64,000 bases of DNA from Phoronis australis (lineage: Eukaryota > Animalia > Phoronida), in the NCBI GenBank assembly GCA_002633005.1, contig NMRA01000011.1, positions 1,193,513 through 1,257,512 of the forward strand. The letters are read 5' to 3'. Below the pieces are notes generated by a model. It was not told the origin of the DNA. It did no database searches and was given only the letters and a program-made list of their open reading frames with translations. The translations under genes and the position numbers were made by a program. How positions within the stretch are numbered: position 1 is the stretch's first letter; each line of letters starts with the position of its first letter. Positions 15,201-47,749 of this stretch are shown in pieces.

Positions 15201-15640
15201 TGGACCAGTGAGGAACCCCTTCACCGTATCAGCAAGTTCATGCTAAAGGGCGCGCAGCGGGTTCTAATGCGGATTATTTATCGTGTATTAGGGTATCATA
15301 GCGTCTTTAACGGAATGTTTCATTCAAGTAATTGCTCATAACAGCCAAGGTGAAAAAAGGCGGAGACTTGACAGCTGTCAGGTGTGCGTCAACTTTAGAC
15401 CGGGCGACTTGTTGAGGCGGACAGGGAGATTTTGTGTTGACGACATGTTATGACTTATGGAAATCCTGCTGCAAAGCCCACCCATAAACTGCACCGTAAC
15501 TCATTCTCAAGTTCCCCCAAAACAACTATAACCAAATTCAAATAACGATCAAGGCAAACACAGAGATGACCACAAAAGAATAATGCCACCCTTATTCGAT
15601 AATCGAGCCATCCATTATACGTCACACTAGAGGTGTGAAG

Positions 15641-15775
15641 CTCCGCCTCCTTTTCACAGCAGCTACTGTAATTACGAAATGGACGTCTCCAAACTCAGTT
15701 GACTTGAAACAGTTCCACGTGAAAAAACAGTGAAGTCATTATAAACCTACTCGTGTCGACATCGAAGCGCATTCA
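15641..15775 (+). promoter_or_regulatory. Probable netrin core promoter (GC box, E-box, TATA, Inr)
   Basis: CTCCGCCTCC at 15641, CACGTG at 15716, TATAAA at 15740 and Inr-like GCATTC with A at 15771 (31 nt after the first T of TATA). No ATG between 15771 and the start codon at 15995. Confidence 0.6.
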
Positions 15776-15994
15776 AATATTTGCGAACCGGCGAATCAGG
15801 ACTGTATAGCTGGGCTATTTCTGATTGAAATTTATCAAGTTTATTGAGAAAATTCGAAGTGTTCGTGAGGTATCTATCTTCATACTATCTTATCATATAC
15901 AGATCCGGTGGAGATAGAGCACTCGCTCACATAGCTTTCGGGTGCTTTGGCGAACTTGGAGTTTTGCTTACGATTTTGTTACCAGACGACAAAG

Positions 15995-17033
15995 ATGAAG
16001 CAAAGGCGACCGTCGGACATATTGTATGTTTTTGGAATACTTTTCGTGGTGCGCGTTCAGGCCAGTAGGCCCTTCTTAGGGATGTTTGGCCCTCAACAAG
16101 ACCCTCCAGACCCGTGTTATGACGAGGACGGGGCCCCTAAGAGATGTATGCCTGACTTTGTCAACGCTGCCTTTAACAAGGACATCGTAGCCAGTAGCAC
16201 GTGCGGTACACCACCGTCTCGTTACTGCATGACAACCATCGACCAAAAACTGGGAGAAACGTCCCGGATATGCAACATCTGTGATGCCAACCATCCCAAG
16301 AGAATGCACCCTCCGGCGTACCTCACTGATTTAAATAACCTAAATAACGTCACGTGCTGGATGTCAGAACCGTTCCAGAATCACCCTAAAAATGTCACGC
16401 TCACGCTGGCTCTGGATAAGAAGTATGAACTAACTTACATATCTCTACAATTCTGCTCCTCTCGCCCGGACTCCATGGCGATTTACAAAAGCATGGATTT
16501 CGGGAAAACGTGGGTCCCATTCCAGTACTATTCGGGATCTTGCCGCAAAATGTACGACAAAGTTTCGCGAGGGACGGTCACTAAAGCAAACGAACAGGAA
16601 GCGATATGTACAGACGCCTACAGCACTTCAAAAATCACCGGCGATAGAATCGCTTTTTCCACCCTTGAGGGCCGACCTTCGGGTTATGATTTTGATAACA
16701 GCCCCGTTCTGCAAGACTGGGTGACCGCCACCAACATCAAAATAGTTTTCAATCGACTTAGCACTCTGAAATCCGAAGCCGAAAGCATTGAGAACAATCA
16801 AGCAGAGGTAGACCTTGGCAAATCAGAAAATTTCTATTCTCTGTCCGACTTTGCAGTTGGTGGTCGATGCAAATGCAACGGACACGCGTCCTCGTGCAGT
16901 AAGAACCGAGACGGTCAGACGGTGTGTGATTGTAAGCACAACACGGCTGGAGTGGACTGCGACCGCTGTAAACCTTTCCACGTTGATCGCCCCTGGGCCA
17001 GGGCAACAGCGAGAGAAGCAAACGAGTGCGTCG
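15995..17033 (+). CDS. NTN1: Netrin coding exon 1: signal peptide, laminin VI domain and LE1 (V-1)
   Basis: [23 protein letters not shown] signal-like N-terminus, then [62 protein letters not shown]...[15 protein letters not shown]. Donor G|GTAGGT at 17033/17034. Confidence 0.96.
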
Positions 17034-20000
17034 GTAGGTTTATCTTTTTCTGTCTCATTAGATTAATTAATTCTTTATAATTACTTCTCCCCCTCGCAAC
17101 GGCAGGTTGGCTGCTGGCACGCATTCTCTTGGCGCAGTCGACTCAAGTCGAAACAGTATACATATAAACACAGTCCATATGTTTTCAGCGCACATGTGTC
17201 ACGGGACTATGTTGCGTGTATTTCTGAAGTTTGGTGTCGCAGCCAGCGAACTTGATGCCCTTATTACATTCCTGTGTTTGCATTTGTGAGTGGAGAAAAT
17301 TAACTGTTAGTAGTTTTAGTGCCCACAGCATCTGTCGCTCGCATGTAAGCGTGCGTTCGCCATCTTAATAGTTTTATTTTTTGGCACGTTCAAGTTGCAC
17401 AAGTCATTTTGTGGAGTTCCCTTGCACCAGCTTTTAGAATAATCCATTGTCACCTCACAGGACAAATGTTGATTCACATTTCAATTGACATCAATATATT
17501 ATCAAGGGCATTAGGTTGAACTGTTGAATAAAATATAAAATTGAACAAAGTCTGGTATAGAAGGAAATACATCGATTACATAAATCACTTTTTCTGCGAG
17601 TTCGTTATTTTCCTTCAGTCCAGTTCCACCTAGCTCAGTACGAAATTAAAATTTCCGTAACAGTGTGCCAATTCGTTTCGTCTGAAGAGGGAATATCGAA
17701 ATAGTAATGATCGAGACGGATCAGTACTTAATTGACTTCACATCAAAATTCTGGTTCACGCCGCGTTTCTAATACGACACACATGTTCGACTACCCAATA
17801 CAAACACGCATCACGGTTTAGCAACAGTGGATGAACGTCATAAGAAAACTGCACCATTCTCAACTAGATTTCTCACAATCAATTTTATGAAAAACGCAAA
17901 TGAGAAAGCCTATCGCGCCTAAGAGGTGACAATAAAGTGATTCGTCTACTGACCGATAAGGAGATAAAGCTGACAGTTTAGTTACGAGCTGAAAATCGCA
18001 AACCTTTAGGAATCTGCAGACGCCGGGAGAATGCGTGAATAAAAAATAATACATTTTGCACACATTAAGTAAACCATGAGAGACGAAACAATATCACTAA
18101 AATGTAAATAGGAAAATAGTCCACAATTAAATTTACCATTTTTCCAACAACGCTTTCATTAGCCTCATGAACTTTGTAAAAATGCAAAATAAGAATTTCG
18201 AGACAACTTCAATTCCACAAACTTCCTGTAAAAAGTTATACAGCATGTTCATTCCGCAGCAGATAAGCAGAGGTGTCAGCTCGGCTCATTTCAAACATTA
18301 AAATGTTTATACTACTAACGTAAGATGATCCACAAAAATGGGTCACACGCAACAAGACGTCAACAGTGTTACAAAAAGTGGCCCCCATTTAAATGATTTA
18401 TCAATATTTTGTACAATTGTGATACATAAGGAAATCCCTCCGTGTTTCTTTCTTGCGGCATAACACACGTACACAGTTGATCGTGTCATTGTTTTCTTTC
18501 TAGAATAAATGCATTAATTTTTTGTATGCCGAGCAACAACGTCCTAAACGGTTCGTGTTTATCTTTTGGGGTTTTGAGCTATTTCACGCATGCTTTCCTT
18601 CGTAAGGTGCTAAAACTCAATAAAAATGATGTGTATATTCTAACGGGCAATTAAGCAATTAAGATTAAGGAGATAGAGACGATGGTATTGCACGCGGCTA
18701 TGGCCTTCGGGTATGACCCGGCGGTTCGCATTAGGCGGAGTTCATGCAGCAATAAAACATAACGAGGGAACTGTTCCGCTGTAATTATTTGTAATCGAGA
18801 TGTGAAATTTGTGCTGGCAGTGCAATATTAGTTCTATTTGCAGCAAATCAATGTAGCAAACTCAATTTGGTTGTGTTGGCCAGTCACTGAGACGATTTCA
18901 AGTTTGCACACGGGGCATGGTATACGAGGTTTACAAAAGAAGACGGGCCACTGTACATGTTAGTGGTCGAGGATCAAACATAAACAGTGCACTTCATTCG
19001 GAATAAATGTGTTTGTAAATTAGGAGGACAGCGATCTTTTAGGAAGCAATGCGGCTGTAAATGTTTAAACTATTGAACAAATTCCTGTCCGTGTTTATTT
19101 TCACATCTGGGTCCAAAGAGAAGTAACTGAGCGCATACAACGAAACGAACCAAACGTTCACACCAAATTAAGCAAGGAATTGTTAGAAATTTAGGAAACG
19201 AAATTTGTCGAAGTTGTGATTTTAAATGGCACTTATTTATCTCTGGTAGTACTTCAACGCACATCTATTTTTATCGCAACGATAGATTATTTTAGCCAAG
19301 AAAAACTAAGTTCTGAAAAACAGTCCGACTGAATGAGTTGGGTCTGCATGTACACAGGCCGTCTATTCAGCGAGAAGGGATGGATTATTCTTCTCATTTG
19401 AAAGCAGAATGGGTAAATATAATCATTGTCAGCCTATTGCCAGAATAAATAGTATACATTTATTAGAACAAGACCAAAACATGTGTGGCTTCATTGTGGA
19501 CTGTGTTAAAGGTGACACATCGTTTTCATGAGCAAGCACGAGTCGACAGCGTGCGCCCGTATGAGGACAGTCTTGAAAAACACAAAAATGCAGTAGGTTG
19601 CACAAGTCACAAAATTCCCACATCATTCTGTCTCGGGTGTCCGTGTTGGATAAATAAGAAACGTGTTTTGGCTCGGCAAGACAATAATATAACTACCAGG
19701 CTAATTGGTATGTAACAAACCTCATCGGTAAGAAACTCACACGCGAACTCGGAACTCGAATTTTTTGACGGAAAACACGCCACGACCTTGGGACAAAAAC
19801 AACCTCATGACCCGTCACTCGGTATGACGCCGCGGATCTAACTGTAGTTTTTAGTATCTTCTAGTTTATTTACAAAATATTTAGTCTCCTTCAAGCCTGT
19901 GTTCTCAGACTAGGACCTGTATTCAGAAGGCGGGCCAGTTTTAGAAACTCTACTTCGCATTTCGCTTTTCTTAAACTCCCACGTTGCTCTAATGATTTGC

Positions 20001-23000
20001 ACATATTTTCGGTCTAAGTCTATCCGCGATCAATATCAAAACAATACTAATGTGAAATGCGGGCCTCAAACTTTTAAGTATTGTCTGGCTTCTTCTTTTC
20101 GCAGTACGACAAAATGTTTTAAGCTAAGTATAGAAATTGCGTGTCTTCTTTGCGGAGACAAATTAATCAAAATTGACAAGAAGTTTATTAGCTGTCCACA
20201 TCGCTTCGCTTGTTTTGACTAAAACCATCAATTGCAAATTACGAAGGTATTACAAGGCCACGTGATCAATATTTTAATTAAGCTGATGTACTTTGACTGT
20301 GATAGTAACGTCTATGGCAATGAATGCGAGTATTGCGAGACCCAGACTACAATTCGTTTGGTGAGGGGGTTGGCGGGGTTAAGGTAGCTAGGTCATATAC
20401 ATGTCGACAAACACTGCAAGGTGAACGTATACCTTGGGATATAGTATCTTTGTTGTGGATATCCCTGACAAGATCTTGCATCCGCCCATGTCATGTGACC
20501 CTTCTCTGTCATGACTCCGTGACTTAATTTGGTTTTCTCGAGGATGAACGAAAGCGACTCGTTTTTAAGACCACTGAAAACTATATGACTCAAAAGTGAG
20601 AAAGCTCTGTGGCGTTTTGCTCAAATTTCCGTTGAAATGTACTTGTTTCGCTGGCTTACCAATTTCAAATGTATGAAACGTATTACAATCGGAGTTTAAG
20701 ACGAATGAACATGTTGCGACAATCGCATTCGCTTGGCCACTGTGCAGAACACCTGTGTCAAGGATTGTCAGGTCCACTCTTACTCTCTCGGTGCATTTCT
20801 TTCACGACAGCTTTCCGGTATGCCGGAGAAGGGTTTTGATAAACTAAATAAAATATGTAGATTAGCCGCGAATCCTTCTTTAAATAATTTGATATCATTG
20901 TTCGACTGTTGATTTAAGACCGTGAAAGGGTGGATGGCCGGTTATGGTAAACTCAACACAAGAGACGGTTCCCATTTCAATAAGCCCGGGGCGTTGAATA
21001 AACGTTTGACAAGTTTATACATATCTAAACTATTATTATTTTGATAAGAATGTTATACATAACACATTACGTGCATTAAATCCACTAAACACAGTCTGGT
21101 CGTGTTATTACACGGTTTATTACGTATATTACCCAACTAATATTTCCACGTGCTACCAGTCAAAACTCATAATTAACGGATGACCAGATACGCTTGTTAC
21201 CTATATATGCGCGGACAGTTTTCCATATCATTTTTACATGTAATCGTGTTCAAATATGTTCAGACCATGTATCCCATTGAGGAAAGACCAGAGGCATATG
21301 TTTCTACGTCCGCCGTTCCATTCTCAAATATCTATTAAGACCCGTCACTCAAAACACCTATTGTTTAGAGAAGCACTTAGATCTCGGAATGTTGATCTGA
21401 AAATATTCGTCTCGAACACGTTTTGTGCTAGTTTATTTTCATTATTGCCCATTTGCGCCAGTTTTCCAACATCTTAGTACACCATAATAAGACTCATTCA
21501 TTTTTTGTTGACTCGTGACCAATAGGACATTTCTCTCGTATTGAATCGTAGATTTCTAAGGGCAAAACGGGAAAAATGGTCCGAAAGTAAACAGTCTTTG
21601 ATGTGTTACCCGCGAATGTAAATTACAAGGGTAACAATACTAACACGCACGCAAGGATAATAGATCGTTTGACCAACTTCAGAATCCAGTCATCATTCAC
21701 ACCGTATCGTGTACGTTGCATAAACACGGAGGTGTAAAATTTATTCAAATTCAATGGCAAGGCACCCACAGTAATTAGACTTTAATTGTTACCTCGAATG
21801 TGAGTGTATTTTCTAGGAAAATACAAGTGTTAACCGCGGTTATTATGTCACCATGGCGTATCGTTTTTCGCGCCCGATTTCTACGGAGGTCCACTTCCGG
21901 TCACACAGCAGCGAGTTTTTACTACATGAGCAGCAGCAACAACAACAACAACAGTAAAAGTAATATAATTATAATGATCATCGTAGGATAATAGTAATAA
22001 CAATAATCATAATACAAATAATAATCATAGCAATGGTACAGATTGTACATCGGATGGATCAGATGATTATATACACTAACAGTTGAGCAGGGAAACGTTA
22101 TGTCCTAAATAGACAAAAAAATAAAAACCGTCTAAATTAGACTTTTATTGAAATGCACCTAAAAGGATATGCTCAATAGCGTCATGGCTATAAAGCATTG
22201 TCGGTATTATGTAAAGACATACCCAAAAAGTTATCAATTAGTCGGTGTTTTTGCAAAGGACAACACAGGTTCATAGGTTCGTGGAAATGCAATAATTGTG
22301 GTTGACCTATTTTAAAAGAGCGATGACAAAGTAACGACACTTTAACTTCAAAAAGACACGCACTGACAGCCAATGTACAGTAGGCTTTGTCGAAATGTTT
22401 TCAATACCTATAGCGTTTATTTCATCGCCAGATTGAAACGATTTTCGTGTATGAATTGAAAATGACGGTGTAGGAGGCTGAAGAAGCATTTATCGAAAGA
22501 AACGACGGATGCGTTCACAGAATAATGCCGACCTTTTATCATGACGTGTTTCTAAACTACGCTAGGGTTACATCACCGCGATATTTCGGTGCATTACTCC
22601 CCTACTGATATCGTTGAGAAACGCTGGATTTTAATCCGCTTTGTAACACCTCGCCTAGTACTTTTCAGTACATCAAAACAATCCTGAAATTGTACCAAGA
22701 GAGCCGCTCACGCTCAACGACTGGGTTACTCCCCTGTATTGTCATGACCGACTCATTCAGTAGCATGGTATCACGTCGTGAAATTCGCTACCGGAACAAC
22801 GCTGTTTATTTTACCACATTGGTGTTTTGAAGGGTAAACAAACAAACGAAATCTATTATTTACTCATATTTGCATCCTCCGACAATATGTCAGTGCCTTT
22901 AGCGATGTCAAATATGATGATTCATACGTTTTGAGATCACATTGAAGTACCTAACAGACCCTTTTTATGGCTTTCAAAGAGAGCTTAGAAATTCACTTTC

Positions 23001-26000
23001 ACATGTTTCCCCACTAGTCCATATCTCCATGAATGTGTTGCGAGGAGAAGATATGGTTTCACATTCGTTCGCTGTGTGTAAGCTAGTGTCAAATTTCTTA
23101 ATACAATTAGGTCTTGAATAGCAGAGCTTCACCTGTGAAAAGGATATTAATTTGAACAAGAATCGTCTGATGCTAAATGCGTAAATGTAAAACGGATCTC
23201 CTGTAGTAGTAGAGTTGTCTATAATATGTGGTGTAAGATATATAGCAGCTAAACAGAAACTCGGAATATCTGAAAGCGATGTTCAATGTAATAATAAAAT
23301 TAAACATTTTCGCGACAAAAATCATCTGTTTCAACTTCTGTGCGTTGAAAACATTCTTCTTGGTGTACTGTTGATTAATAACTAGTAGTCCATTTCCACC
23401 TGCGAGGAACAAGTGCTCATGAACGGTAAATGATCCACGGGAGCACCTTGAATTATTTACCTAAGACCCCTGAATGAGAACAATTGAGAATTAGTCGAGT
23501 TTAATGAAGCGTGAAATTACCTAAACACACCTGCAAACCGCACCACAGAGAAATCACGGCAATTAACGCTGTTTGTTGCGCCCGTCCGACTTGGGTACAC
23601 ACGGCCATAAAAACTAGCAGGTATGAACCGGAAAATGGTCAATAGCCATCACGCTGAGTTCCCTTCTGTAGTACTTCTGAATGTAAATGTTTGTGGTTTG
23701 TGCTAGGTAAACGACTGTATTGCACACCAAGATAAATAAAAGTATTCTATCATTTGTTATCATCTAGAAATCCAAAAAGAACACCTGTTTTGATTGTTCG
23801 TTAACATTTCTACATCTTTGAAATTAACTTATAGGTTGACAAGTTAGTAATATTGCCCCAGTATCAATTTCACGACTGCGATACCACTTCAAAGCCAACT
23901 CCGAGTCACAGTTAATTTTATACGGTTTGCTCGTCTGACAACGGAGAACGTCGAACGCATACCGACCGAATTTAGGCTGAGATCAACATTACATGCACAG
24001 TAATTTCTTGAACAAATGCAATGAAGACTTCCTGGGGTGGCTTATCGAAGGACTGTATCCTCCATTTTGTTAAAAACTGCATTTACAATCAAGTGGAGTT
24101 ATCAGGTCATAAATAAGAAAATCGCAACACTAAACAGTTGGCAATTGACAGGTGAAGACACGCTTGTTTTATGAGAGTAGTTACGCAACTCACCGGGCAC
24201 ACTGATTTATCTATTCGTTAGAGATTGTTTTTTACAAATTCTAATTCCACTGTATGTACTTTGGGCTGTAGACATGCCACGTTTGTCACGTTTTGAACGA
24301 TACGGGAATAAAGCACCGAGAAAGAAGTAGCAAGGATCTACTTCCTTTAATTAAATAAACAGTTATTAGACCGCGAGGCAGCGATAACATTTCCTATCAC
24401 AGGGTTTCCCCGGCTTAATACACAACGGGGCAGCCGGGGCAATTAGTTTTCCTGAAAGTGACAGAGAAATGAAATTTCAGTCACTCGTTCAACATGTTAG
24501 AAATCTGTTCCGAGGTGGTGAAAACCACTTGGGATGCTAATAGTTCTATTATTTATCTAAAAGCTTGACCTGTTCTTGTGATATAACGAGGTCGATACGC
24601 TTAAGAAAGTCATTGTTTCTCAATTGCCCTTGAATGATGAACAATGAGTGGGGTGCAGAAATCTAATCGACATTATAATACCCAATAACGGAGAGTTTTA
24701 TGGAGAGCTGACGTTATTTATTTTTGTTCCCGCTGTGCACTTAGTCATTACAAGTGGTAGCAATTGCTATCGAAACATTGTTCGAATTTTTTTGTTCGCA
24801 GATATCACTTTCATCAACACATTGTGACACTTGAATGGGCCTAATCACACGGCATTCTACCTGGTCACGGATTATCATGCAGTAATTCCCCGAAGTGTCT
24901 AATTAGGTCTATCAATTTCTCAGATTTGTTTGAGGTATTCGTGTCAATTACCAGAGACGGCCCAACGAAATCAACAATATTTACTTCACCGCTGCGGCCA
25001 GTCATTTCGACAGACATGGCCCAAAAACAGGAGGTGCATATACAAGTAACATTTCAATATGGTTCTGAAGGCTATTGTTCAAATGTCGACGTGACTCGCC
25101 ATATATCTTTCAATAAGCAGCCACAGAAAGATTGTTTACAATAACAGCAATTGTAGCGTAAACAACAAGGCATGAACTCGTACACGTGAGAACTAGAATA
25201 CTCGAAATCGGTTACAAAAAAAGAAAACTAATAATTCTGATTAACACACTTCGTGCAAAATGAAAGCAAAGTGATTGTAAAGCCTCACCACAGAATGCAC
25301 AGCAGAAGTCAAGCGATCATGAATGTACAGTCTACACAAACGACCTGCTAAGGCCAGTTTTCAGGAAGAGAGATTGTCATGTGAATCAACATCCTGTCCC
25401 TAATATCCTCTACTACTTACTATCCCTTAGCGAAACACTTTGATAGCATGTTTTTAAATTCTCTTTTTTTGCAAAAGCAACAACCATGACAACCATTGGT
25501 ATCCCACGTTGGCAGCTTCTGCGCGCGGATCCAGGATCATGAACGAAGAGGTCTGACAATGGGCAGACCACTTTTGACTCTTTATATCCCTCCACTGTAG
25601 CAATTCAACATTGCACATGCAATGAGTTCAATCCTGGATCCGAACCCGACTCCATAGACAGCGAAAATAGCTACTCCCGTTTCACACGTCTGACATAGTT
25701 GTTGCTTTTGAAAACTTGAATCTATTGCTAGGCATGACGTATTTCAATTTCCTTGTTGTAGTTCCATCGTAAATGTGAATGTATGGTGCCCAATTGTCTT
25801 GTAATCCCGATGTCTTTTTCGAAATGAGTCATCGCATTCGTGGAAGCTAAAAAGTCAGAAACACGTTTCTTCCAACTTTACTGTGCGCATTTTACTCATC
25901 CATTGACAATTGGAAATTTCCTGGGTTGCCAAGACTTTGACCACGAACGCGATGCAGTTCTCCAGGTTCGACAACTACTACCACCACTCTGTATGTGTCC

Positions 26001-29000
26001 CGACTACGCCACGTTTGTTTTCGAGCTTTTGGCTTACAATCTAACCTCTGTCATGTGTGCCTGACAAAGAAAAGTTGCTAATTATCTACTAATGTGCTTG
26101 ATTGGCTTTGTTTTTAAACACAATCATTGTGCTTCACGTCGAAGGTAACACATTGTAAACTAATACGACAGAAGTGGGGGGAGACGACACCTCAAGGACA
26201 AAAGGCAAAAATCGTGACTATTTTTACATTACAAAAATTTGTGTTAACGGCCTTTGGTTCGTAAGTGGTGAGATGGGTGGCGTTGCTGAATATGCGCTAA
26301 TCAGAAACATTGTTTTTTGTTTCAAACGGAGTTACTGCTTTTTGAATGACGAGTCATATAAACTATAACACTACCAAAATAGTTGAGGTAAAACGTCAAG
26401 GTGTTAAGTTCAAAACTTATTGCAATTGTTGACCACGTAATCCATACGTAAACTCATAGTCGGCTTATCTCAAATATCAACGCTTTTGTGAGCTTCTAGT
26501 TGCTTATTACGCACAGTTTGTTTTACTCCTTTCTGCCGTGGCTTTGCAAACCTTTAACAGCATGAACATTTTGCTTTTCCAGTGGCATTTAGAACAAAAG
26601 TTGTCACCACAATACACAAAACATTGTTTTATTGGAAAGCAATGTGACTCACGATTTACAGAGACACTATCGTTTTTCATGATTGACATTTTTGGTATTA
26701 TTGTTGGATGGGATAGACTTAAAAGATATTAGATTTGACCAGCGCTATAAAACAATAAAATCTTGCTACCTTTCTTGTTGAAGTGACAATAGTTCACCAC
26801 AGGAATATTTGGTTGCCACGGAAATGTGTTTGACAATGGTTGCATAACCTTTCAACTACCAAACTAAAAGACTGACACAAGCATATCAGTTCACTAAGAG
26901 ATGTTGTGCATTTTCTCAAGATCTCATGTGAAAAAACAAACGCCAGGAAAAGAAAATGCCACAATAAGCTATGTTAAAGATATTATACTGTCCTGTGTTT
27001 GTTACAACGAATACAATTATATAGAAAAGCTCAAGAACATTCCATATTTGTGGAAACAAACATTCTCTGTTCAAACCAATCAAGCAAAGCTTCACTTATT
27101 GTATTTTTATCATATGAAAACACAACTCTCAGAACACTTAAGAAGGTATGCTTAAATTTGAACTTCAATATCCTACCGTACTTTCAAGAGAATTGCCAAG
27201 TTGTGCACAACACTTTTAATCCTCATGTGTATTTAACTAGGTGGGCCACAAGTGCATAAAAGTCATCTTTGTTTCATAAGACACAACTGCTTGTCATTTT
27301 GTGTCATTAGAAGCAGTTTAGTTTAAGTGATAAAATGTGCTGCTTGCTGCATTATATAACCAACATGTTTTACAGATGACAGTACCTTCTAATTGGTCCA
27401 TCCCTCAGCCTGTTCCCCAAACCTTATCCAATAACAAAGTAAACACCTTGGAAATGTCCAAAAAGCGCAATTCTAACTTCAGGAGCCATAAGGCTGCTTT
27501 TTTGCCTTGGAAACTTCTTTAATTTAAAATTTATCCACTGGAATGCTCACTAACAAGTTCATACAATAGAAAATAAGATGTAATATTTACTCCACACAGT
27601 AACTTGTCTTTTGGAAAAGAGCTTTAGGCTTGTTTACACTTAAAGTATTCTACAATGGCTCCATTGATCTTTCATTTATTACAGGTGTAATTTCTTCTAC
27701 ACAAAAACTCTGATATTGTAAATTACAAAATCAATGCCTTCTAAAAGACGCAGCAGTACACTCGGCAGTGGATGTCAGTATATATAAGCAATTTTTGCAG
27801 CTTTTCATTTCAGTGCTCCCCTGATCAATCTGTGCCTATCTAGTCTGGTGGTGCATTTTTAACCAGGACATTGCCAGACATTTCAGGGGGAGCTGGAATA
27901 ATTAGCCATGACAAGTACCAATGAAGACAATCATTACAATTAGCCAAGCAAGGGAATGTAAAATTGATCAGTTGTGATGTCTTCTCTGGTAATTGATAAT
28001 ATCCATCCGCTTCTCAACACCTCCCCCAGAACTGACATGACATGTTCACAGTAATTAAGACACTTGATCACATGACCTCCCATAATGCAAAAGCAGTTGA
28101 ATAGCACTTGAGAAGTATAGTGTTAATTTTTGGGGCCAAAGCAACCACTGAACCAACTAGCTGAGGTTTTCCTTCAGAAGCACCAATGCCAGATCAGTTT
28201 TATATTTTTAGACCATTTGGACATTTGAGGCAAACTTAATACAAACCAAAGAATGGTACCTATAATCATTACAAGAATGTAATTTTTAACATTGTCAAGA
28301 TCTTCATAGGCATGGCACATCCTATTCAATGGGTGATACAACATAGATTATCCAGATATTGTTATAATTTTTACCACACAATTTGAATATCCCAAACATC
28401 ATCAATATAAGATGCACGTGATGCAAGACACCAGAAAAATTGAAGACGCAACAGCTTCCCTGGAACCTCATCCAACATGAGACGACCTATTGGTACTTGT
28501 CATTGCACTAACAGAATTCAAACAAACACAATTTTCTTCTTCATTAAGCGACCAATATTTGCCAACTATCCCACATTTTGTAACTGTCCTGCTTTCTGAA
28601 GGACTGTTCTGCGTCCAGGATTTGCATCAGATGTCCCACTTTTTGACACACACGATATTGTCCACATACTTGCATCGTCATAATAATAACTTCGACTTGG
28701 CCATTTCAATGCTATTTCTATTTACCCTTTCATAGGCAGAATTAAGAAGATAGCAAGTATACAAAAACAGAAGCACCACTTTTCATTTTGGAATGTTGAC
28801 AACTATTGTGTATGGGAGTTCTTCATTCACTCATCGGCAGTTCAGTCATTCCGACTGTGGTGCATCATGGGAGTTCTTCATTCACTAATCGTTTGCCCAG
28901 TCATTCAACATTCTACTTCCTGCCTACCACAGAAACCAAAACAACGTTGGTTTGACTTGTGCAGACAAAATAGTCAGTATGATACAGACAGTTTGGTTGA

Positions 29001-32000
29001 CGCACAGTTGGTGACATTCGATTCCCACCACTCAGCCCTCAAAAGTGATTCAACCTAGAAAAAGAAAACAGTGTAATTAAAGACCACTTTGCACCAACAG
29101 TGTGCTTGGGTGTTCAACTAAATGAAACTAAAACTTGGTGCTTAGAAGAGAAACTTGAGAAAATAAACAGACTTCTATTAAACACCAGGGAAACAGAGTA
29201 TACTACAAAGTATGGGTGAGGAAGGTGTGTAAAATGTAGATAAACATGAGAAGAAATGCCATGAGATTAGAGAAATATCTGATCATAGGAAATTTTAAAA
29301 GAAAATGAAGGCAAACCCAAGCAGAAGCAGCATGCATGCCCTCTAGTGTAGATGAAGCCATGAGGGGAACAGTCTTCAGATCATTCATAAGTGACAACTT
29401 TATCCTCACACAAGTGCAGAAGGTTTCATCGGCTGAGAAAATGCGATTAGTTTTAAAAAAACAACAGCTTCAGGCATTTGGTAGAGCAGCAAACGACAGC
29501 CCAACACACGTTGTGGCCAGCAACGACAAGCTGTTTTGGACTTGTTGAAACGCTGCGCTGTGCAACACAAGGTCAAACTAAGGTGACTTGTGTTCTCCAT
29601 TCACTGCTTGCTACTAGTTGTAACAGATCAAGTGCTTTAACCAATACAAGTAACAGTGAAATAGTACATTTTAAACCAAACATGAAATTCATAGATATGA
29701 ATCACATGTTGTATTAAGAAACTTGCTTATCATTATATGTTAAGGTAGATTACTACTACTACTACTACTACTACTATTACTACACTGCCTATCTTTAACT
29801 ACACACAATAGAAACAAGTCATTTATTGTTTAAGATCACAACAGTTTCAAGTCAACAACATCCAAGCAACAATTTAAAGAAAGGAAAAGTGCCCACATGA
29901 ATCAAAAATTCGATTTTCAGATGCTTGGTATTTTTCCTCACGGGATGAGAGTTAAATGCAACGAAGAAAAACTATGAAGCATAACTGGTTAATCCTCATC
30001 TTAATATTAACATTAATATTAACATTAATATTAACATTAACATTAAAATTAACAAAAGATTAATTCACTGTTGATTTTATTGATTTGTCTAACTCAATTG
30101 AAATTTCACACAATAGGCACTAAAGCTGTCAACAAGCTTTGAAGAAAAACCAGTTTAAAAAGCATATTTAAGACAATTCATTCCATGTGTTACTTTTTCT
30201 TTGGCTGCCATTAATTTACAAACACCGTGTTCACTGCAATGTGGAATTCAGAAAGTAGGCAAAAGCCAGTTGTTGTTTTTCCTAACATTTCTATGGCACG
30301 CTTTGCTGCTTATGCTTATCAACTCTTTGCTTCCACTTTGTCATAGCTGTGTTCTCTACCTTTTCTTTACAGCTTGTAACTGTAACCTCCATGCCAAAAA
30401 CTGCCGTTTTAACATGGAGCTTTACAAACTATCGGGACACAAGAGTGGAGGAGTTTGTCTCAACTGCCGGCACAATACCGCCGGTCGAAACTGTCATTAT
30501 TGTAAGGAAGGATTCTATAGGGATCAAACCAAACCCATCACCCACCGCAAGGCATGCAAAGGTAGGTGGGGCCAGAGTAGTCCGTCTTACATGTACCTTG
30601 TCCTTGCAGCATGTACGTGCAACCTTCATGCCCGACGTTGTCGCTTTAACAGCGAGTTGTACTCACTGTCAGGACAGCTCAGCGGAGGTGTCTGCATTGG
30701 CTGTAAGCACCATACCGCAGGCAGGTATTGCCACTACTGTCAAGAGGGGTTTTACCGTGACCTTAAAAAACCCATATCACATCGCAAGGCATGCAAAGGT
30801 AGGCAAAGAGTAAGTCACGTGGCAGGTACATGAAAGGAATGTGCAGGTGAATAATAGCACCACACAACTAGGACATCTTTGCTCTGAAAGTCCATTAGCC
30901 ATCAAGTGTACAGGTTCCAAGGTTTATTAGGTGGAAAATGTCACAAAATATGAAATTACTCCAGTCAAGAGGCTTAGCATTTTGAACTTTGATGAGAACT
31001 CTAATCAGTCTGAAGGTTCGTTAATCTTTTGGTCTACGGGTAGGAAGGTCATTAGTCTGATTTTTGGGCATTTGGACCAGGGGGCGCATCAAAACAAATT
31101 AAGGACTTTCAGTTCAATACACGCTATGAGCAGCCGGGAATAGGACAAAATGAGTGCTGGAGAGACAGGGCCAGCAAGGAAAAGGTCAACATCCATTAGT
31201 TTTTTTGTGAAGATCTGAATCAATTTCACACAGAAGGAATGTGTGTGTGAGTGTGTGTGTTTATGTGTCTCCCTGGTAGAAAGTGGGTGGGAACGTCTAG
31301 GTCAGAGGGGATGTTGTGATGTAGGAAGTGAAAGTATTTAGAAATCGAGCATCATGTTGTCAAAGTTGGGTGCACACATCAACAGTATGGTAAGAGGCAA
31401 CTTGTGTGTGAGATCACCAGCGTTTATTGTGTAACCAGATGAAGGTGTTGAGGTGGTCTTCTTCATTTTTCTAGTTCCAGCACCATTAAAACACAGGGGC
31501 TCACTGCTGGAACACTACAAGTTTCCAACAGCTGTTTTCCATTTTGAATTACAAGACTGATCTGTGTTTATATTGTGTAGGACACTTCTGTCTGCGAAAA
31601 ATGTTCACTCCACTGTAGACAAGTGATGTCAGAAGCTTAGGAGACCATGTGACTCACATACTTAGGAGAATCTTATGATGAAACTTGCTGCTTTCACCCC
31701 TTGATGAACTCAGTATTCATTGACACGTACTGCTATGAAATTGGTCTTGACTTGATCCTTATTCAGATGAGAAGTGATTACTCGGTTTGCAAAAAGCTGA
31801 CAGTTGATTATTCCTAGAGATGTTGCTTGGCGCACATCAGGCCCCACATGGCATTTCCCAACTGGTAGCTATAAATGCTTCTTACCAGTGGAGATTACAA
31901 AAGGCAACTTACCACCTGCCCTGGACTTTTATGACGGACTTTTTTCTTTTGGGCCAGGAACAAAAATGAGTCTCGATCACACCACTGCGTGTTTTTGGCC

Positions 32001-40100: not shown

Positions 40101-43100
40101 AACATTCCCGTTACTAACTTTAAAATTTTACCAAAAGGTCACTAAGCTGTACTTGCTTGGCACCTGGCTGCTCTCTGACTTTGTTCGTGTGGCAGGCTCC
40201 GGTTGCACGATCGGCCATGTCCCGAAAAATGTGTAGAGCTGTTCGAAGTGTGGACAATTTCCAAGGCAGTCGTCAGAAAAGGCCTTACTTCTATGGACAG
40301 CATCTCTCACGTTCCTGTATGTCTCAACTTTTTCATTTGTCAGTCGCCCTCTGGTAACACATCACAGTCATCCGACTGGCTATCGCCTGATACACCATCG
40401 AAAATACCTTGAATTGGCGACTTGCTCCAAATGCTCAGTTTCATTTGGTATCCGGTTACCACTTCTATTCTAGTTAAATTTGCTGCTTTGAGACATGTTC
40501 TTAAAAGTTGTACAGTGAGCAGCAATCACACAGTATCAAGAGTGTGTGAAATGATGGGAAAACCTCCACACTGGCGTGAAGTGGTGAGACAATTTAGGAT
40601 GGTGAAATATAATCCGGACTAAACTTTTCGCATTGCCGTTATGTAATTGAAGTAACTTTGGTGTGCTCGCTAGTTAGTACGGCCTTTTCTTGCAAACTAA
40701 CTTACCTCCTAAATTTAGACAAGTCGAAATCATCTTTTACTTTGAGTCTAAAATTTTGTGGCTGAGAAAAGAATATTAGTCCATCGTTCTAAATCCGTAG
40801 TGCGAAAGGCTCTTTAATATATGGAAATCATTCAAACTTATGGTACATAAGAACATGATTGCAATGAATTCACATACCCTTCTGCTATCCTAACATTAAC
40901 ATGTTTTCAGCAAATTAAATCTCTCCAATTCAAAACTTTGGTTACAACATTATAACCTTATCCATTTCAATGAAAAATTACTGACTGTTACCGTTAATGC
41001 GTTCTCATACCTACCGCAAATAGAAGTGTCAACATGAGAAATACCACTAACTGGTATTTGCCTAAGGTAAATAGTAGCAGCCTATTGAAGACTCCTGTAA
41101 GTTCACACCTTGAAGCCACCGACACAAAGGGTGGTAACAAACATAGTCAACTTAAACATTTAACTTTAACTGGAATGTGTTTTCAAACTTTGAAAGTAAG
41201 AGTAGTCTAGTGGTCAACTTGAGGTCTGCATGCTTTGTACAGTTGACAATGAAGCAGTGTAATTGGATTTTCAAGCTGGCAATGCTATTTGTTGGGTTCA
41301 TTTCCGTTTTCTCGAAACTTCTTGATCCAATTTAGTCTTCAATGTATGTTACAACATAAAAAGTTGTACAGTTGCGTATTATAAACACCTTTATGAAAAT
41401 AATACCAAGTTGCAATATTTCTAAAGATAATACGCTTTTGAAAATTATCAACCTACTTAACTCTTAACCGTTTTCAAAGTATTGTGACCAAAATTTAGAG
41501 TCATTATTGGGCTCCTGTTGGTGATCAAATTGTTTAGATAAAATAAACATGTAGGAAACACATGTGAATGTTTTTATGTTCAAGTTATGACTGGGACTAT
41601 CTTAGCAACATGGGCGGTAAAAATATTTAACATTTGGACTGCTATTTGAGTTTTTTAAATGAATTAGCTATTCTGAGACTTCTGTTTTACTTTCATCTTT
41701 AATTCTGGAAGCTGTGTGTTTTGCATGTACTGGACATATTATATATCATCCACAATGTCTCAAGACCCCCCTCTCTGCTCCACCTCTCTCTCATAGTGTG
41801 TCTGTGCTATATTTATAGGAGAAAATAAGAATAATTGGTCACAAATGATGATTGACAAAACATTGTTATTTATCTAGGATCCCTAGAAAAGTGTCCAAAT
41901 CAGGGTAACTTCGGAACATCATATCTCAGAAATGGATGATTAAATTCAATGAAAATTTCAAATACTGTGCGTTATGTACTGTTCTCCAAAATGCTGTTGG
42001 GAATTATTTTTAAAATGTTCCCATTTTGCATGAGGGGATATCAAAGGATGACTGTTATGATATTCGCAGAAAAACTTCAACATTGCGTAAAACAAAAACT
42101 AAATATTTTAGAAAACTATAACAGCGATTTTGAGATCTCACCTCGAACATTTATATCGAATAAAATTTGAACATGTTATTGACAACATTGTTTTGCTATC
42201 GATGTGCATGTCTTTTTTGCAAAATTTTACTAATTAATAATAGGTTACTAAAAATATAAATTCTACAGGCCATGTAATTTCAGAAAATACATATTTTTAT
42301 TGAGTTAAAATCTAAAGTTTTGTAGATATTTAGCTACATAGGTAGACCTGTAAATAAGATCTTACATAATCTTAGCCAATGCAAGGCTGGACCCTTCATA
42401 ATGAAGTAACTTAATTTTTCAGCATGTAACTGTCACCCTGTTGGCTCCTCCGGAAAAATCTGCAACCAGACAACAGGACAGTGTCCATGTAAAGAAGGAG
42501 TGATGGGTCTGATCTGCGACAAGTGTGCGAAGGGATACCAACAAAGTCGAACACCCATTGCACCCTGTGTCAGTAAGTAACTGCTTATGAGTATCTGGAC
42601 TTAAGTGTTGGGTAACAAGAAGAAAATTTAAGCTGATCTGCTTTGTTTCGTACTTTTTAACTGCGTTTAATGAGCCTCATACAGTCCCGGGGCTAAGCAT
42701 CAGCACAGTTTGAACATTTAATAGAATAATACCAAAAATTAATACTTTAAACTAACATTCTTTGATATTACATTAGTTTTGTTCAGTATAAAATTATTGC
42801 TGCTCTACATGTTAGTTACTGCCATTAGATCAGAGATTTAAAGCAATCTTAAAGCGTACAGTTTCAGCATGGAAAGGCTAAATCTTGCTCTGAATCTTGA
42901 AGTCACTGTGATGTCCGTCTGTGTGTCATGTACTACAATTAACTGCCTCTCAGGTGCATGCTCAGTAGTAGTATTTTACTGTGTCAAGCTGTGATTTGTA
43001 CATGGCTTTATTGTGCTCAACTTTAGGATTGCATGGGCTCTTTAGTGAAAGGAGGTAAGAACGCGAGCCTTTATGTGTAAAAATGAATAATCCTGTCACA

Positions 43101-46100
43101 AATAAAAAACTTACTGACACAAGAATAAATCGAAAATAAAATACAGATGTTCGTTTCATAAATTTGACAACAATGCATCGTGAAATCAACATAAATTAAA
43201 AAAGCGTACTTTCGCACATGATGAGATATAAGTTTGCTTGCTACATAGGACATTTATTCCAAGTAAAACCCTCAATTACGCAAACATGCTGAATCCATGT
43301 GGGCCAGGATTCCCAACAGACTTAGATTCCATGTGGTGTATGCATGACAGTCTTCTACCCCCCTCCTCTCTTGCATGAGCCTCTAGACACTGCATCTTGG
43401 CATTTTGACCAGTCCTCTTTTTACAATTTGCCAATTTGTGTATTTTCAGGGAAATCATCTGAAGAATTTTTCCCTGTGGACGAAGTATTTACAGGTGTCT
43501 TAATTATTTATTTGTTGTTTCATGCAGACCTTGCGTATTGTATCCAACTGAATTGCTTGGACACGATCTTCACGCTCGCTGCACGCACACTCTTTTGCAC
43601 TAAATTTATCTGAACCAAAGCAATTAAAAATTTTCATAAATATGAAGAATCAGTAAACGAATAATCAAAATTACTAAACAAGAATATAGTCTGCAATGTG
43701 CATGATTTGTCCTTATACAAAGTAATACTTTTAAAAGCAATTTGTGGCTTATTGAAAATACATCAGTCAAGTGACGCTCTTTTTGCAACCAACCAACTTG
43801 GGAACTACAAGAGACTTAATAATGGCAAAAAAATTCAAATTATTCATTAAATCAAACATTGAAATGGCAAGACTAATTCCTACTAATAAGTTGTCTGGGG
43901 GGTTTGTCTACAATAGTGTTGAGCTCGAATGCTATTTATTGCCTGCCAATCGATAACAGCGATGAGTGTTTTTGATATCAGAAACTCTGCATTCAGCAGT
44001 TAGTAAATAGATGTCAAAACTTTTCAAGCAAATATTTGATAACACACTACTTCACACCAATGCAGACCAAATCGGCATATAATACAAGAGATAAAATTCC
44101 ATACCGGCCAACTCTTTGAAAAGACGTGTAAGCCTGGATTAACTTAATCTACATTTTTGCTCCACGAGGTGTTATAAAATGTCAAAACTATAAAAAATTA
44201 GACTCCAGTGGAATACATAACAAGTAAACAAATTATATCATGCTGGTGGGCTATTTCTAAACAAAACATTCCTTTGATGAGTAACCTTTACACAAATACA
44301 ACTTGTTTTATCTGATAATTTTTGTAAATATCAGGATGTACTTTGTTCAGGTAGATAACTCTCATGTTTACTAACTAAGAACAATTAACCATATATGCGA
44401 TCAACAAGCACACTGCGCTAAGACAACATCTCACCTCCTGTATAGAAGGGAATTGTATCAAAAGAATCCCAAAACTTTAAATTAGTTTCATTATCACCTT
44501 CCACTGCAAAAAGTAGACTTCAAGGCAGCCTGTATTCACCAGTCTCATTACATATCACTTTCAAGCCTTTTGCCATATTTTCTATAAAAACATTCCTTGC
44601 GCACATGTAGCTAAGTGCTTTATGTTGATTCAGATTCCAGATGACTACAATTACTAACACGCACCCAAAGGTAAGCGACTTCCGAACATGATGCAGCTAA
44701 AATTCTCCTGTGACGGGCATTCAAAGTGACTCTATCACTTCTAAGGAAATATTGGACTGTAAAAATCAGGGTTGAGAGCTACAACAAGCATGAGAATTGA
44801 AAATTAGGAAATATGGGGTTGAGCATTAGGCTGAATAATGGCTATCCAACAACACGAATCAAGTGATAAAACAACATCTTTAGTTTTTATAGATACGGTT
44901 AAAACTTTTTAAAACTATTATTCATGTGCCAAATATGTGAGTTGTTTGGAACTATTTCACACAACTTCAGTTATAAGAGTTGTTTGAGACTACTACTTCA
45001 TTTAGTGACAATTCAACAGCGGCTATGTTCTGTATTTTTATCACTACTGTCAATGGGTGGATGAGCAAGACATTTTCTACCTTGACTTTATAATGGCTAA
45101 TGGAAACGCGTTTCAGAGAATGAAGACATCACACCCTAATTAGGACACTTTTCTAACAAATTTTTGACAGACTTCAAGAGATGGTGTAACAATGTCAGTA
45201 AATGCACGGTCTACAACTTGGCTTACGGTAAAATCTCCCGATTTAGGACACACTATGGCGGACAAATAAAATTTTGTTTTTTTAAAAGTTTTTTCAGTGT
45301 CAACTTTTTTACTTTAGTTAACGTTGGACAATGAGTTAAGAAACTGTAGCATTCACAACAATGTAGGAGCGTTAGAATATTAAAAGAAGTCCAATTTTGT
45401 CAATTATTTTAGTCTAAACTAAATGATGTATTGCTGAAGATCAGAATGAGAGGCATGTATGATAATTGCAGATCACTTTGCGGGTGATTGTCAAAACAGA
45501 GATTCTAATGAATAACTTCACAGTGTATGATGCATCTTTGAACCACAATCTTAACATGTCAATCAAAGACCAATGCTTTCACACCATCTGGGAATGGTAC
45601 ATAACAATTTCACCACTGCAAAGGAGATAGACACACAGCGCTTGATCGGTTAATTTTTGGTACTAATACTTGAAACATTCAGGGAATGCCTGTACCTAAA
45701 TTATATGGATTTTAATCAGTCTTCTTGTATTTTAGAAATACCACAAGCAGTTGTTCCAACCATGGCTTCCAAACCAGCTAGAAAGCCTGGTAAGTTTTCT
45801 GTATTTCAGCACAATATGACTTTTCACTGTCTCTGGCTCAAATAAGCTCACTCAGAGACTACGAACCACCAGCTAGTTAGAAAATGACCAATACAGGTCC
45901 AGTATCACGGCTATCAAAATGTATTGGTGTTAACCATCTAATACATTTATGTTGCTCAAAATTTAATCTTGCAAGAAAAAAATGATGACCAATTAGTGTG
46001 AACACGTCCACAGTACGTATAGCTGTGTAACTTCCTTGTTTTAATTTTAGCTCGCAAATGTAACCAGAAATGCAGGGTAAACAGCAGAAGAGTGAACCTG

Positions 46101-46982
46101 AAGAAATATTGCCGTCGGGACTTTGGTAAGCACAATTTTTAAGTAATAACAAAAGTACCAATTTTCCTACTAACCTCATTTTCATTACATCACGATTAAT
46201 GAATAAATTATGATAATGACTTTATGTTCACACTTACTCGGAGCCATAAGTCAGATATGACACTCTCCTAACAGTCGAGAGTGTAGCTAAACCACTTAAG
46301 TTCCTTAGTACTAATAGACTAGTCAGTAATCAGTACCTTGACTGACGTATCTCACATTCGTGTGCTCTCACTAATGAGGCCCTCTCACATAAATACATAT
46401 TCTCACAAAATCTAAGCCAGTCTAAACATCTTGATAAAACCCGAGCTTTGGCCAAAAATGGTTCGAATGAAACACCATCGAAGGGGTACAATGCTTACTA
46501 GACATTTCTCCCTTTTCTGGATGGCACTGTGTATTGGTTTGACAGGACCCTTTGTTATGACCAAGCTCAGGTGTAAGGTATGGAGCAGGGGGTCTGGCAG
46601 TGAAAATTAAAAAAGAAGTTGAATGAGTCAAGCAATCCCATCAAAAATTGATGTTTCAGCTTTCCAAGCACATGTGCTCTCAAAAGAAATTGTGGACAAG
46701 AATTGGGTGAAGTTCAGGATCGACATCTACAATGTCTATAAGCAGCAGAAGATTCGTTTGCGACGCGGACCACAAAATATCTACATTGCCAAATCTGACT
46801 ACGAATGCAAATGTCCGAAAGTGCGTCTGGCACGAAGATTCCTTTTCGTAGGAAAGAACAAGAGGTACCGCAACGGTATTCTTTTGGACAGGAAAAGTAT
46901 AGTGGCTCCATGGAAAGATGACTGGGAGAGGCGGCTGAGGAGGTGGGCAACAAAGGACCGCAACGGCAAATGTCGGTCATGA
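15995..46982 (+). CDS. NTN1: Netrin-1/UNC-6-family secreted axon guidance cue, spliced gene: join(15995..17033, 30373..30561 [or 30610..30798], 42423..42572, 45736..45789, 46051..46125, 46660..46982); 1830 nt = 609 aa + stop
   Basis: Signal peptide, laminin N-terminal (VI) domain, three laminin-EGF (V) repeats and a C-terminal NTR/C345C domain. All introns are GT-AG and phase 1, and the joined exons give an uninterrupted frame. Internal exon sizes 189/150/54/75 nt match the vertebrate netrin-1 structure as I recall it. Confidence 0.95.
29751..29783. repeat. (CTA)n microsatellite
   Basis: tactactactactac... seen directly. Other simple repeats: (CA)n ~11122, (AAC)/(AAT) ~21932-22030, (TTAATATTAACA)n 30001-30053, (ATT)n ~37112-37148. 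Confidence 0.9.
30373..30561 (+). CDS. NTN1: Netrin exon 2A: laminin-EGF repeat LE2 (V-2), copy A
   Basis: Acceptor ctttttctttacAG, 189 nt, [63 protein letters not shown], donor G|GTAGGT. Confidence 0.94.
30610..30798 (+). CDS. NTN1: Netrin exon 2B: duplicated LE2 (V-2) exon, copy B, probable mutually exclusive alternative exon
   Basis: Acceptor ccttgtccttgcAG, 189 nt, [63 protein letters not shown] with all 8 Cys kept, donor G|GTAGGC. Confidence 0.88.
32309..32466. repeat. Minisatellite, four copies of a ~39-bp unit
   Basis: TACAGTTCCCACTGTCCTAGAAGCGTAATACTTGACATA repeated head to tail with no spacers. Confidence 0.92.
37372..37983. mobile_element. Tc1/mariner-like MITE (~610 bp)
   Basis: TA-CAGGGTGATTCTCCTAAAACAGGCC ... 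GGCCTGCTTCAGGAGAATCACCCT terminal inverted repeats. Confidence 0.7.
38403..38975 (-). mobile_element. Non-autonomous DNA element, inverted copy of 58612-59138
   Basis: Collinear reverse-complement similarity along the length, e.g. GGGAAAGGTTAAC, GTGGGAAAGGTCA, CATCAGATGAAGAATGACACTG, CCCTAATGGGAAAG. Confidence 0.75.
40128..40460 (-). pseudogene. Decayed Myb/SANT-like (trihelix, Harbinger ORF1-type) coding remnant in netrin intron 2
   Basis: Minus-strand fragments [15 protein letters not shown] and [19 protein letters not shown] resemble the N- and C-terminal motifs of Myb/SANT-like DNA-binding domains. Interrupted by stops and frameshifts. Confidence 0.4.
42423..42572 (+). CDS. NTN1: Netrin exon 3: LE3 (V-3)
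   Basis: Acceptor tttttcAG, 150 nt, [50 protein letters not shown], donor A|GTAAGT. Not in the ORF track. Confidence 0.95.
45736..45789 (+). CDS. NTN1: Netrin exon 4: Pro-rich linker
   Basis: Acceptor cttcttgtattttAG, 54 nt, [18 protein letters not shown] (cf. KIP.. linker of netrin-1), donor G|GTAAGT. Confidence 0.85.
46051..46125 (+). CDS. NTN1: Netrin exon 5: start of the NTR/C345C domain
   Basis: Acceptor ttaattttAG, 75 nt, [25 protein letters not shown] (cf. KKYCKKDY), donor G|GTAAGC. Confidence 0.92.
46660..46982 (+). CDS. NTN1: Netrin last coding exon: NTR/C345C domain with basic C-terminus
   Basis: Acceptor tgtttc[53 protein letters not shown] at 46980-46982. Confidence 0.94.
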
Positions 46983-47749
46983 TGCGATTTACAGACGCTC
47001 TTATTTATGGTATTGTGATATTAACAACTATTTGTGAATCTTGCAAATGTGAAGTTATGTCGTTACAAATGTGACGTTTGAACAGTGTTACGGTTTTATC
47101 CAAGACTAGGCACTTCACACGGACCTTTGATAATTGAAGAAGTTTAGTCTGATAATCAGCTCTTAATTTGGTTGGCGGAACTCTTTGAAACTGTCGACTT
47201 CCAAGTTTAACGGCAGCNAAATTGTGGACAAGAATTGGGTGAAGTTCAGGATCGACATCTACAATGTCTATAAGCAGCAGAAGATACGTTTGCGACGCGG
47301 ACCACAAAATATCTACATTGCCAAATCTGACTACGAATGCAAATGTCCGAAAGTGCGTCTGGCGCGAAGATTCCTTTTCGTAGGAAAGAACAAGAGGTAC
47401 CGCAACGGTATTCTTTTGGACAGGAAAAGTATAGTGGCTCCGTGGAAAGATGACTGGGAGAGGCGGCTGAGGAGGTGGGCAACAAAGGACCGCAACGGCA
47501 AATGTCGGTCATGATGCGATTTACAGACGCTCTTATTTATGGTATTGTGATATTAACAACTATTTGTGAATCTTGCAAATGTGAAGTTATGTCGTTACAA
47601 ATGTGACGTTTGAACAGTGTTACGGTTTTATCCAAGACTAGGCACTTCACACGGACCTTTGATAATTGAAGAAGTTTAGTCTGATAATCAGCTCTTAATT
47701 TGGTTGGCGGAACTCTTTGAAACTGTCGACTTCCAAGTTTAACGGCAGC
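46687..47749. other. Apparent 531-bp tandem duplication of the last netrin exon and proximal 3' UTR around a single N at 47218 (assembly overlap)
   Basis: 46687-47217 equals 47219-47749 except for the three synonymous SNPs I could see. The second copy starts mid-exon with no acceptor. Confidence 0.88.

Follow-up and report, generated by a model that had tools for sequence, protein, structure and literature searches.

Dscam, a receptor with hypervariable exon clusters, illustrates how tandem duplication lets splicing vary one module of a protein, and alpha-tropomyosin has a distant branch point. Closest in layout to the locus described below are let-2 exons 9/10 (with a 30-nt intron), egl-15 exons 5B/5A and gly-5 of C. 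elegans, human OGDH exons 4a/4b, and alpha-tropomyosin exons 2/3, which combine homologous exons of 3n length, a short intron and steric interference (PMC4165533, PMC5740500, PMC7969005). The duplicated exon of oyster alternative oxidase is likewise a tandem exon duplication that varies one module (PMC5589949). Netrins consist of an LN domain, three EGF repeats and an NTR module (reviewed in PMC10084454), and the netrin-1/UNC-6 group, represented by human NTN1 and C. elegans UNC-6 (PDB 8SNP, 8TSM, 8EDK), shares this order of LN, three LE and NTR units. Phase-1 introns before EGF2 and EGF3 are also present in unc-6, according to the allele table of PMC13617976.

The gene reported here differs from those netrins by a doubled LE2 exon; the outgroup isoforms checked have one LE2. 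The same exon pair is found in the RefSeq netrin-1-like X1/X2 models of Haliotis, Mizuhopecten, Mytilus, Patella, Biomphalaria, Lingula (XP_013408519.1/XP_013408520.1), Lineus (XP_064637889.1/XP_064637894.1) and Tubulanus, which are automatic, unlabelled predictions of equal length. A literature search of listings and abstract openings, largely without subscription papers, found no description of a duplicated or mutually exclusive netrin LE2 exon. The first-pass annotation was aware of no such report for netrin-1/UNC-6-type genes, in line with that search, but the pair is implicit in the RefSeq models and recurs across Lophotrochozoa. Mutually exclusive duplicated exons as a kind, and the isoforms in automatic annotations, were already known; what seems new is the recognition of a single old switch, shared across a clade, in the domain with which a classical guidance ligand binds its receptors and heparin. 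Compared with Dscam, the netrin pair offers two alternatives only and sits on a secreted ligand, and whereas let-2, egl-15, gly-5, OGDH and alpha-tropomyosin have been tested experimentally, it is known from sequence and partial RNA. The reading preferred here, held at a probability of about 0.8, is that the two LE2 copies, exons 2A and 2B, are a mutually exclusive pair, so that the gene yields two netrins of 609 residues each, for which different binding to heparan sulfate and to UNC5/DCC is predicted.

The netrin gene and its doubled LE2 exon

The window, a 64,000-nt stretch of Phoronis australis DNA, carries on its forward strand a gene that sequence comparison places in the secreted netrin-1/UNC-6 group. 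The coding part of exon 1 (15995..17033) encodes the leader, the LN (VI) domain, recognised by Pfam as Laminin_N at 257 bits, and LE1; it ends in phase 1 at a donor that an RNA joint connects to exon 2A. Beyond the two LE2 copies lie exon 3 with LE3 (42423..42572, 150 nt, phase 1-1; tblastn, frame check, Pfam), a predicted 54-nt linker exon 4 (45736..45789; splice signals and frame only), exon 5 with the start of the C-terminal netrin module (46051..46125; tblastn, splice signals, frame check), and exon 6 (46660..46982; tblastn, frame check, Pfam), which holds the rest of the NTR/C345C module (PF01759, 67.5 bits) and the stop codon; all are on the forward strand. The introns of this model measure 13,339, 48, 11,624, 3,163, 261 and 534 nt. 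Pfam finds EGF_laminin in exons 1, 2A, 2B and 3, giving the gene four LE units, whereas each predicted single-copy isoform has three, as do the orthologues. Netrin-1 chains match exon 2B at 103-110 bits, against 64 for netrin-4 and no more than 41 for laminins. Exon 1 shares 62-66% identity with netrin-1 proteins, with the brachiopod Novocrania as best match (66%), and a quick exon-1 tree groups the window with Lingula and Novocrania at a weak SH-aLRT of only 84, a placement read as lophotrochozoan and perhaps close to brachiopods.

Exon 2A (30373..30561, forward strand), the first LE2 (V-2 or EGF2) copy and the form seen in RNA, is of A type, with N9, M14, K18 and N39. Exon 2B (30610..30798, forward strand), recognised from its sequence, is an intact second copy of B-like character, with R8R9, S14, S18, K32, H34 and Y39. 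The spacer intron between them (30562..30609, forward strand) is 48 nt long, runs from GT to AG, and contains a candidate branch point at A30589 and a short pyrimidine tract. Both exons are 189 nt long and phase 1-1, have AG acceptors and G|GTAGG donors, encode eight cysteines without a stop, and score above the Pfam laminin-EGF cut-off, in agreement with the first-pass description of two consecutive, complete LE2 exons with their own splice sites. A chain with either copy alone has 609 residues; one with both has 672 and one that skips both has 546, and these two are open as well. The spacer is itself a multiple of 3 without a stop, a point absent from the first-pass annotation, leaving 2A joined to 2B directly or through the spacer in frame.

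The copies share 127 of 189 nucleotides and differ at 16 of 63 residues. Of the whole codons, 62 in number, 20 are the same in both copies, 26 show synonymous differences only and 16 encode another residue, as the first-pass annotation had described (16 of 63 residues, many synonymous changes, no stop or frameshift). The dN/dS comparison it proposed gives a pS of 0.83, which is saturated, and a dN of 0.21 (Nei-Gojobori), values from which the copies are judged old and constrained. In run X1 (organism A, about 90% alike), 30375-30864 lies on a single unbroken contig that differs at 47 letters and has one gap, which falls in the spacer and shortens it to 47 nt, a one-base difference that may be an error at a contig depth of 4.4. 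Because this contig spans both exons, the pair is present in independent data. The claim of an old, constrained duplication as opposed to an assembly echo therefore holds; the echo was rejected as a source of 2A and 2B, the window's two real echoes being 97-99% identical and lying on N bases. These are two tandem near-copies, each pair joined at a single N: 46687-47217 / 47219-47749 (99.4%), which duplicates most of the last netrin exon, and 11636-11939 / 11938-12246 (96.8%). A second, GTAAGT donor-like site lies at 30810-30815, 11 nt beyond the 2B donor, and its use would shift the frame.

Isoform pairs, spacers and history across Lophotrochozoa

The same arrangement came to light in other species through searches that used 2B, the frame running from 2A through the spacer to 2B, and a C-terminal module profile, followed by cluster listings. 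Nineteen equal-length protein pairs were chosen for differing LE2 and then checked for differences elsewhere; in all 19, among the matches listed, the 9-19 differences are confined to the LE2 exon. The pairs cover 15 named species of molluscs, brachiopods, nemerteans and annelids (three Haliotis, Patella vulgata, Littorina, Biomphalaria, three scallops, two Mytilus, Lingula, Lineus, Tubulanus and Owenia), plus one run-assembled pair, P0423/P0177. RefSeq alternative models are usually backed by RNA evidence. Among the matches listed, 56 of 57 lophotrochozoan RefSeq proteins carry a single LE2 (36 A and 20 B, typed by residue 39), one is truncated, and none is double. All six full-length proteins from cDNA or assembled runs likewise have a single LE2, of B type in two; judging from their full-length frames, the Logan contigs of 2.3-4.5 kb appear to be spliced transcripts. 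Of 18 other genome annotations among the matches listed, 13 have one LE2 and five have two, the latter being non-RefSeq models from four species (Tegillarca, Bradybaena twice, Pinctada and Plakobranchus). Such four-LE models are probably annotation mistakes.

Several species have A only among the listed models (e.g. Haliotis rubra, Ylistrum and Aplysia), Capitella has B only, and no cephalopods, Crassostrea oysters or flatworms appear by name among the matches listed. In six of six outgroup isoform sets (three echinoderms, two ticks and a scorpion), all isoforms have the same LE2. A seventh set, from Parasteatoda, consists of two proteins in separate records that differ at three late LE2 residues, set aside as a probable assembly difference. 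The vertebrate proteins inspected show no equal-exon alternatives and have shorter X2 forms without LE3 instead. LE3 is absent altogether from netrin-1 records of fish, crocodilian and amphioxus (P0012, P0022 and P0076, checked), and many further netrin matches of 552-555 aa appear to be of this kind. Netrin-1 is monomeric on deletion of LE3 (PMC13759497), so that skipping of LE3 in nature may serve as a conserved switch of dimer formation.

In genomic ORFs that stay open across the spacer, its length is 45, 48, 51, 75, 78, 108 and 129 nt. When 138 ORFs with a single LE2 were scanned for another copy out of frame, eight had one, with scores of 0.82-1.0 (best of 60 shuffles, 0.49) and spacers of 40, 44 (twice, near-identical), 55, 59, 62, 67 and 181 nt. 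With the window (48) and organism A (47), 16 distinct spacers range from 40 to 181 nt, 10 of them at most 62 nt, a range in which long spacers may be missed because detection from stop-free ORFs favours short ones. In translation, the longer spacers show stretches of F, L and S close to the 3' end, as would be expected of long pyrimidine tracts with a distant branch point. Immediately ahead of the B copy, the codons of distant genomes often spell FCLAA or a similar peptide (P0193, P0194, P0043, P0240, P0041), with LVLAA in the window, hinting at a conserved exon B acceptor sequence.

Residues follow the order of the copies. Where order is known, N39 occurs in 10 of 11 first copies and one of 11 second copies, a tally that is circular for the 12 isoform pairs whose A/B labels were themselves set by residue 39; M14 occurs in 8/11 first and 0/11 second copies, and R9 in 10/11 second copies. 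The eight further ORFs in which one copy is frame-shifted fit this order without exception, the copy in frame being of the type expected from its position. K32 is found in 15/23 B copies, 2/23 A copies and 0/13 outgroups, and H34 in 3/23 B copies only; window 2B has both. A tree of LE2 (62 columns) groups 22 of 23 A copies (96/90), with a nematode and one second copy inside, and places 21 of 23 B copies in another group (92/92). Window 2A sits within the A group on almost no branch; window 2B joins neither group, has a long branch (0.41) and is no nearer to other B copies (0.290) than to A copies (0.286).

The simplest reading of these patterns, likely and not proven, is one duplication before molluscs, brachiopods, nemerteans and annelids split, an event of the early Cambrian or older. 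The order, exon boundaries and diagnostic residues are common to the four phyla, and 23 of 23 A and 18 of 23 B copies are closer to the same type in other species than to the other type. These points weigh against an unlikely alternative that is compatible with mutually exclusive splicing, namely that several duplications occurred or that window 2B is a separate copy. That alternative draws on the small data set of 62 columns, in which the bootstrap did not settle, and on AU tests (without the two P0195 rows) that rejected none of the arrangements: a local duplication with window 2A and 2B as sisters (p 0.55), a single A clade (p 0.74) or a single B clade (p 0.60). It also fits the position of Owenia A among the outgroups, and ORF P0195, whose two very divergent A-like LE2 copies, separated by a 78-nt spacer, group together (98/93), possibly through gene conversion or a separate duplication.

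Transcripts and the mode of splicing

RNA from three raw runs assigned by species label (X2, X3 and X4), together with the X1 contig set, was mapped on 15500-31500; 18-19% of each raw run was read, and joints were listed from three reads with two starts. The joint from exon 1 to 2A, the 17033>30373 junction whose reads the first-pass annotation had proposed to count, is present in two reads of X2, four of X4 and one X1 contig, with none in X3. No joint into 2B and none from 2A to 2B (30561>30610) was listed in the three runs at this coverage and threshold. Sense depth sums to about 737 bases in the bin that holds only the 5' 79 nt of 2A and to 1,052 in the bin with the rest of 2A and all of 2B, a share of 41% for the 2A-only bin. 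Read simulation expects a share of 42% for 2A alone, 21% if both exons are always included (P ~0.005), 29% at 30% use of 2B (P 0.056) and 21% at 50% use (P 0.004), with P values that are rough because reads are taken as independent and unspliced RNA is ignored. The depth disfavours constant inclusion of both exons and fits 0-30% use of 2B, and 2A dominates in the sampled runs. Of the earlier claim that one gene makes two ligands by using one exon or the other, use of 2A stands on its RNA joint; no joint into 2B was listed in the three partial runs, and its use in this species is inferred, with orthologous isoform pairs and the read depth here speaking for the claim as a whole.

The same mapping shows reads opposite in strand to netrin over much of intron 1 (21908-29383) in all three raw runs. 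They reach a depth of 14 at 26.7-29.4 kb, above that of netrin exon 1, and differ from the window at many fixed sites. Behind 29056, loose ends (10 and 8 reads) run into sequence absent from the window. Their source is either an antisense transcript or an expressed repeat. At 26687-26720, a 34-nt stretch that reaches thousands-fold depth in X1 and gathers numerous clipped reads in every run is a fragment of an abundant repeat.

In the proposed mechanism, the 2A donor and the branch point probably lie too close together within the 48 nt for the spacer to be excised. The two copies would then not be joinable and each mRNA would carry one LE2, with 2A likely the default form and 2B minor or tissue-restricted. 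The only YTNAY-type match in the spacer is CTTAC, whose A30589, the candidate branch point, is the 28th base of the spacer (27 nt after the first base of the donor) and the 21st from its 3' end. The first-pass annotation had placed a candidate branch point too close to the upstream donor, on the model of alpha-tropomyosin. The match and its distance of about 27 nt from the donor stand, but the acceptor distance of 21 nt is ordinary and the site is close to the donor only through the short intron, more like the short-intron cases of C. elegans than the distant branch point of alpha-tropomyosin. OGDH, too, has distant branch points and a longer intron (PMC7969005), unlike the netrin candidate with its normal acceptor distance. 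The steric criterion for vertebrates is a donor-to-branch-point distance below about 50 nt (PMC5740500, PMC7969005), and any branch point in the 48-nt spacer would lie within this figure, which is a vertebrate one and may not apply to this organism. In C. elegans, introns of 14 and 30 nt between exclusive exons of 3n length are never excised and the minimum intron is about 40 nt (PMC4165533); because the netrin spacer exceeds that minimum, its length is suggestive and not decisive as the cause of exclusion.

Another class of exclusive exons is enforced by decay, where double inclusion or skipping shifts the frame. Here all exon combinations are open, and nonsense-mediated decay therefore cannot enforce exclusion. 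A hairpin between the 2A donor and the 2B acceptor was rejected, being no better than shuffles (z -0.26, 73/200), and pairing of the 2A acceptor with the upstream (55/1000 shuffles) or downstream intron (824/1000) was not significant. A 13-nt inverted repeat (30586-30598 / 30824-30836, 92%) would pair the candidate branch point with the intron just past the 2B donor and loop out 2B. Chosen post hoc, it is equalled by 8/1000 shuffles over 100 nt and 75/1000 over 300 nt, and this duplex of spacer and downstream intron is a weak lead for RNA pairing of the docker/selector kind.

Other fates of the pair have to be weighed against mutual exclusion. A meaningful share of mRNAs might carry both copies and encode a netrin with four LE domains and 672 residues. 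Such a product would be in frame and escape decay, short introns are spliced in some invertebrates (to about 40 nt in C. elegans, PMC4165533), and the five models from Tegillarca, Bradybaena, Pinctada and Plakobranchus do join both copies. Those models are all non-RefSeq, however; two copies occur in none of the 57 RefSeq and none of the six cDNA or run-assembled proteins among the matches listed. The partial runs here point the same way, both in lacking a listed 2A-to-2B joint and in the depth set against constant co-inclusion, which makes double inclusion at such a level very improbable, although a minor fraction may occur. That 2A, spacer and 2B form a single 426-nt exon with two LE2 domains and a 16-residue linker is scarcely credible. 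The spacer is 3n and stop-free in the window and in seven other distinct ORFs, but it also holds a donor, a branch-point match and an acceptor, and the linker occurs in no annotated full-length protein examined. As a conserved mode a translated linker is largely refuted, because eight of the 16 spacers, organism A's 47 nt included, are not multiples of 3.

Improbable, too, is the view that 2B is a relic in this species, its intact state owed to chance or to weak use, and that no protein is made from it. It would account for the missing 2B junction in the partial runs, for a depth best matched by 2A alone, for the long branch of 2B beside almost none for 2A, and for the several species with A only among listed models. 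Yet synonymous sites are saturated at a dN of only 0.21, the eight cysteines, splice sites and frame of 2B are intact, neither exon has an indel in the X1 contig, and B-only transcripts exist in other lophotrochozoans. Mutually exclusive use of 2A and 2B remains the preferred reading.

Predicted properties of the two ligands

LE2 holds the heparin site, an UNC5 contact and a DCC site of netrin (PMC13759497, PMC10871540). Both exon peptides align over all 62 residues to LE2 of netrin-1 (8snp_A 341-402), with exon position p corresponding to residue 340+p of the 604-aa chain. In vertebrate netrin-1, the loop-b helix of LE2 contacts UNC5B, and K360, in the numbering of PMC13759497, is called critical; it is equated here with mouse K358, the offset of two being a mapping made in this work. 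The RRxR motif adjoining the helix binds heparin, and H383 and E387 help form the dimer (PMC13759497). A heparin-dead UNC-6 mutant lacks K354, R355, R357, R378, R404 and K405 (PMC10871540), which map to p8, 9, 11, 32, 58 and 59, and human R348/R351 are part of a DCC site (PMC10871540).

Exon 2A is basic at five of the six heparin positions, with N at p9 (human R349), and keeps M354 and K358. Exon 2B is basic at all six with RRxR intact, and replaces M354, K358 and K363 (M14, K18 and K23) with S, S and L. From these residues, 2A is predicted to have a weakened RRxR heparin motif with one basic residue fewer, and 2B a full RRxR with an altered UNC5-contacting loop-b helix. Across species, M14 is present in 13/13 outgroups, 16/23 A and 0/23 B copies; R9 in 9/13 outgroups, 3/21 A and 19/23 B; and K18 in 13/13 outgroups, 5/23 A and 1/23 B, with L18 in 10/23 B. 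A change to leucine at the K358 position is reported to impair UNC5B binding. Counter to a simple split, K18 is missing from most A copies too, the 2A/2B differences spread across the whole domain, and window 2A and 2B have identical residues at the dimer positions. Net charge is nearly equal, at 9 and 8 for the window copies. Worm genetics disagree on the role of EGF2, with repulsion only in PMC10871540 and both directions in PMC13617976.

A tentative extension of the preferred reading, possible and short of probable, is that Lophotrochozoa have carried a switch since the Cambrian between a form with the ancestral UNC5 helix and a weak heparan-sulfate motif and a form with the full motif and a rebuilt helix, often with leucine at K358. 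If true, one gene would set, cell by cell, how repulsive or matrix-bound netrin is, in a clade that makes up a third of animal phyla.

The choice between netrin attraction and repulsion is normally ascribed to the receptors of the responding cell. An exon switch in the ligand would, if true, move part of that choice to the sending cell. The pair is also a natural set of V-2 variants with which the functions tied to heparan sulfate, UNC5 and DCC could be told apart, and netrin probes made for a single isoform may miss a form in these animals. The switch is testable in existing mollusc, annelid and brachiopod data.
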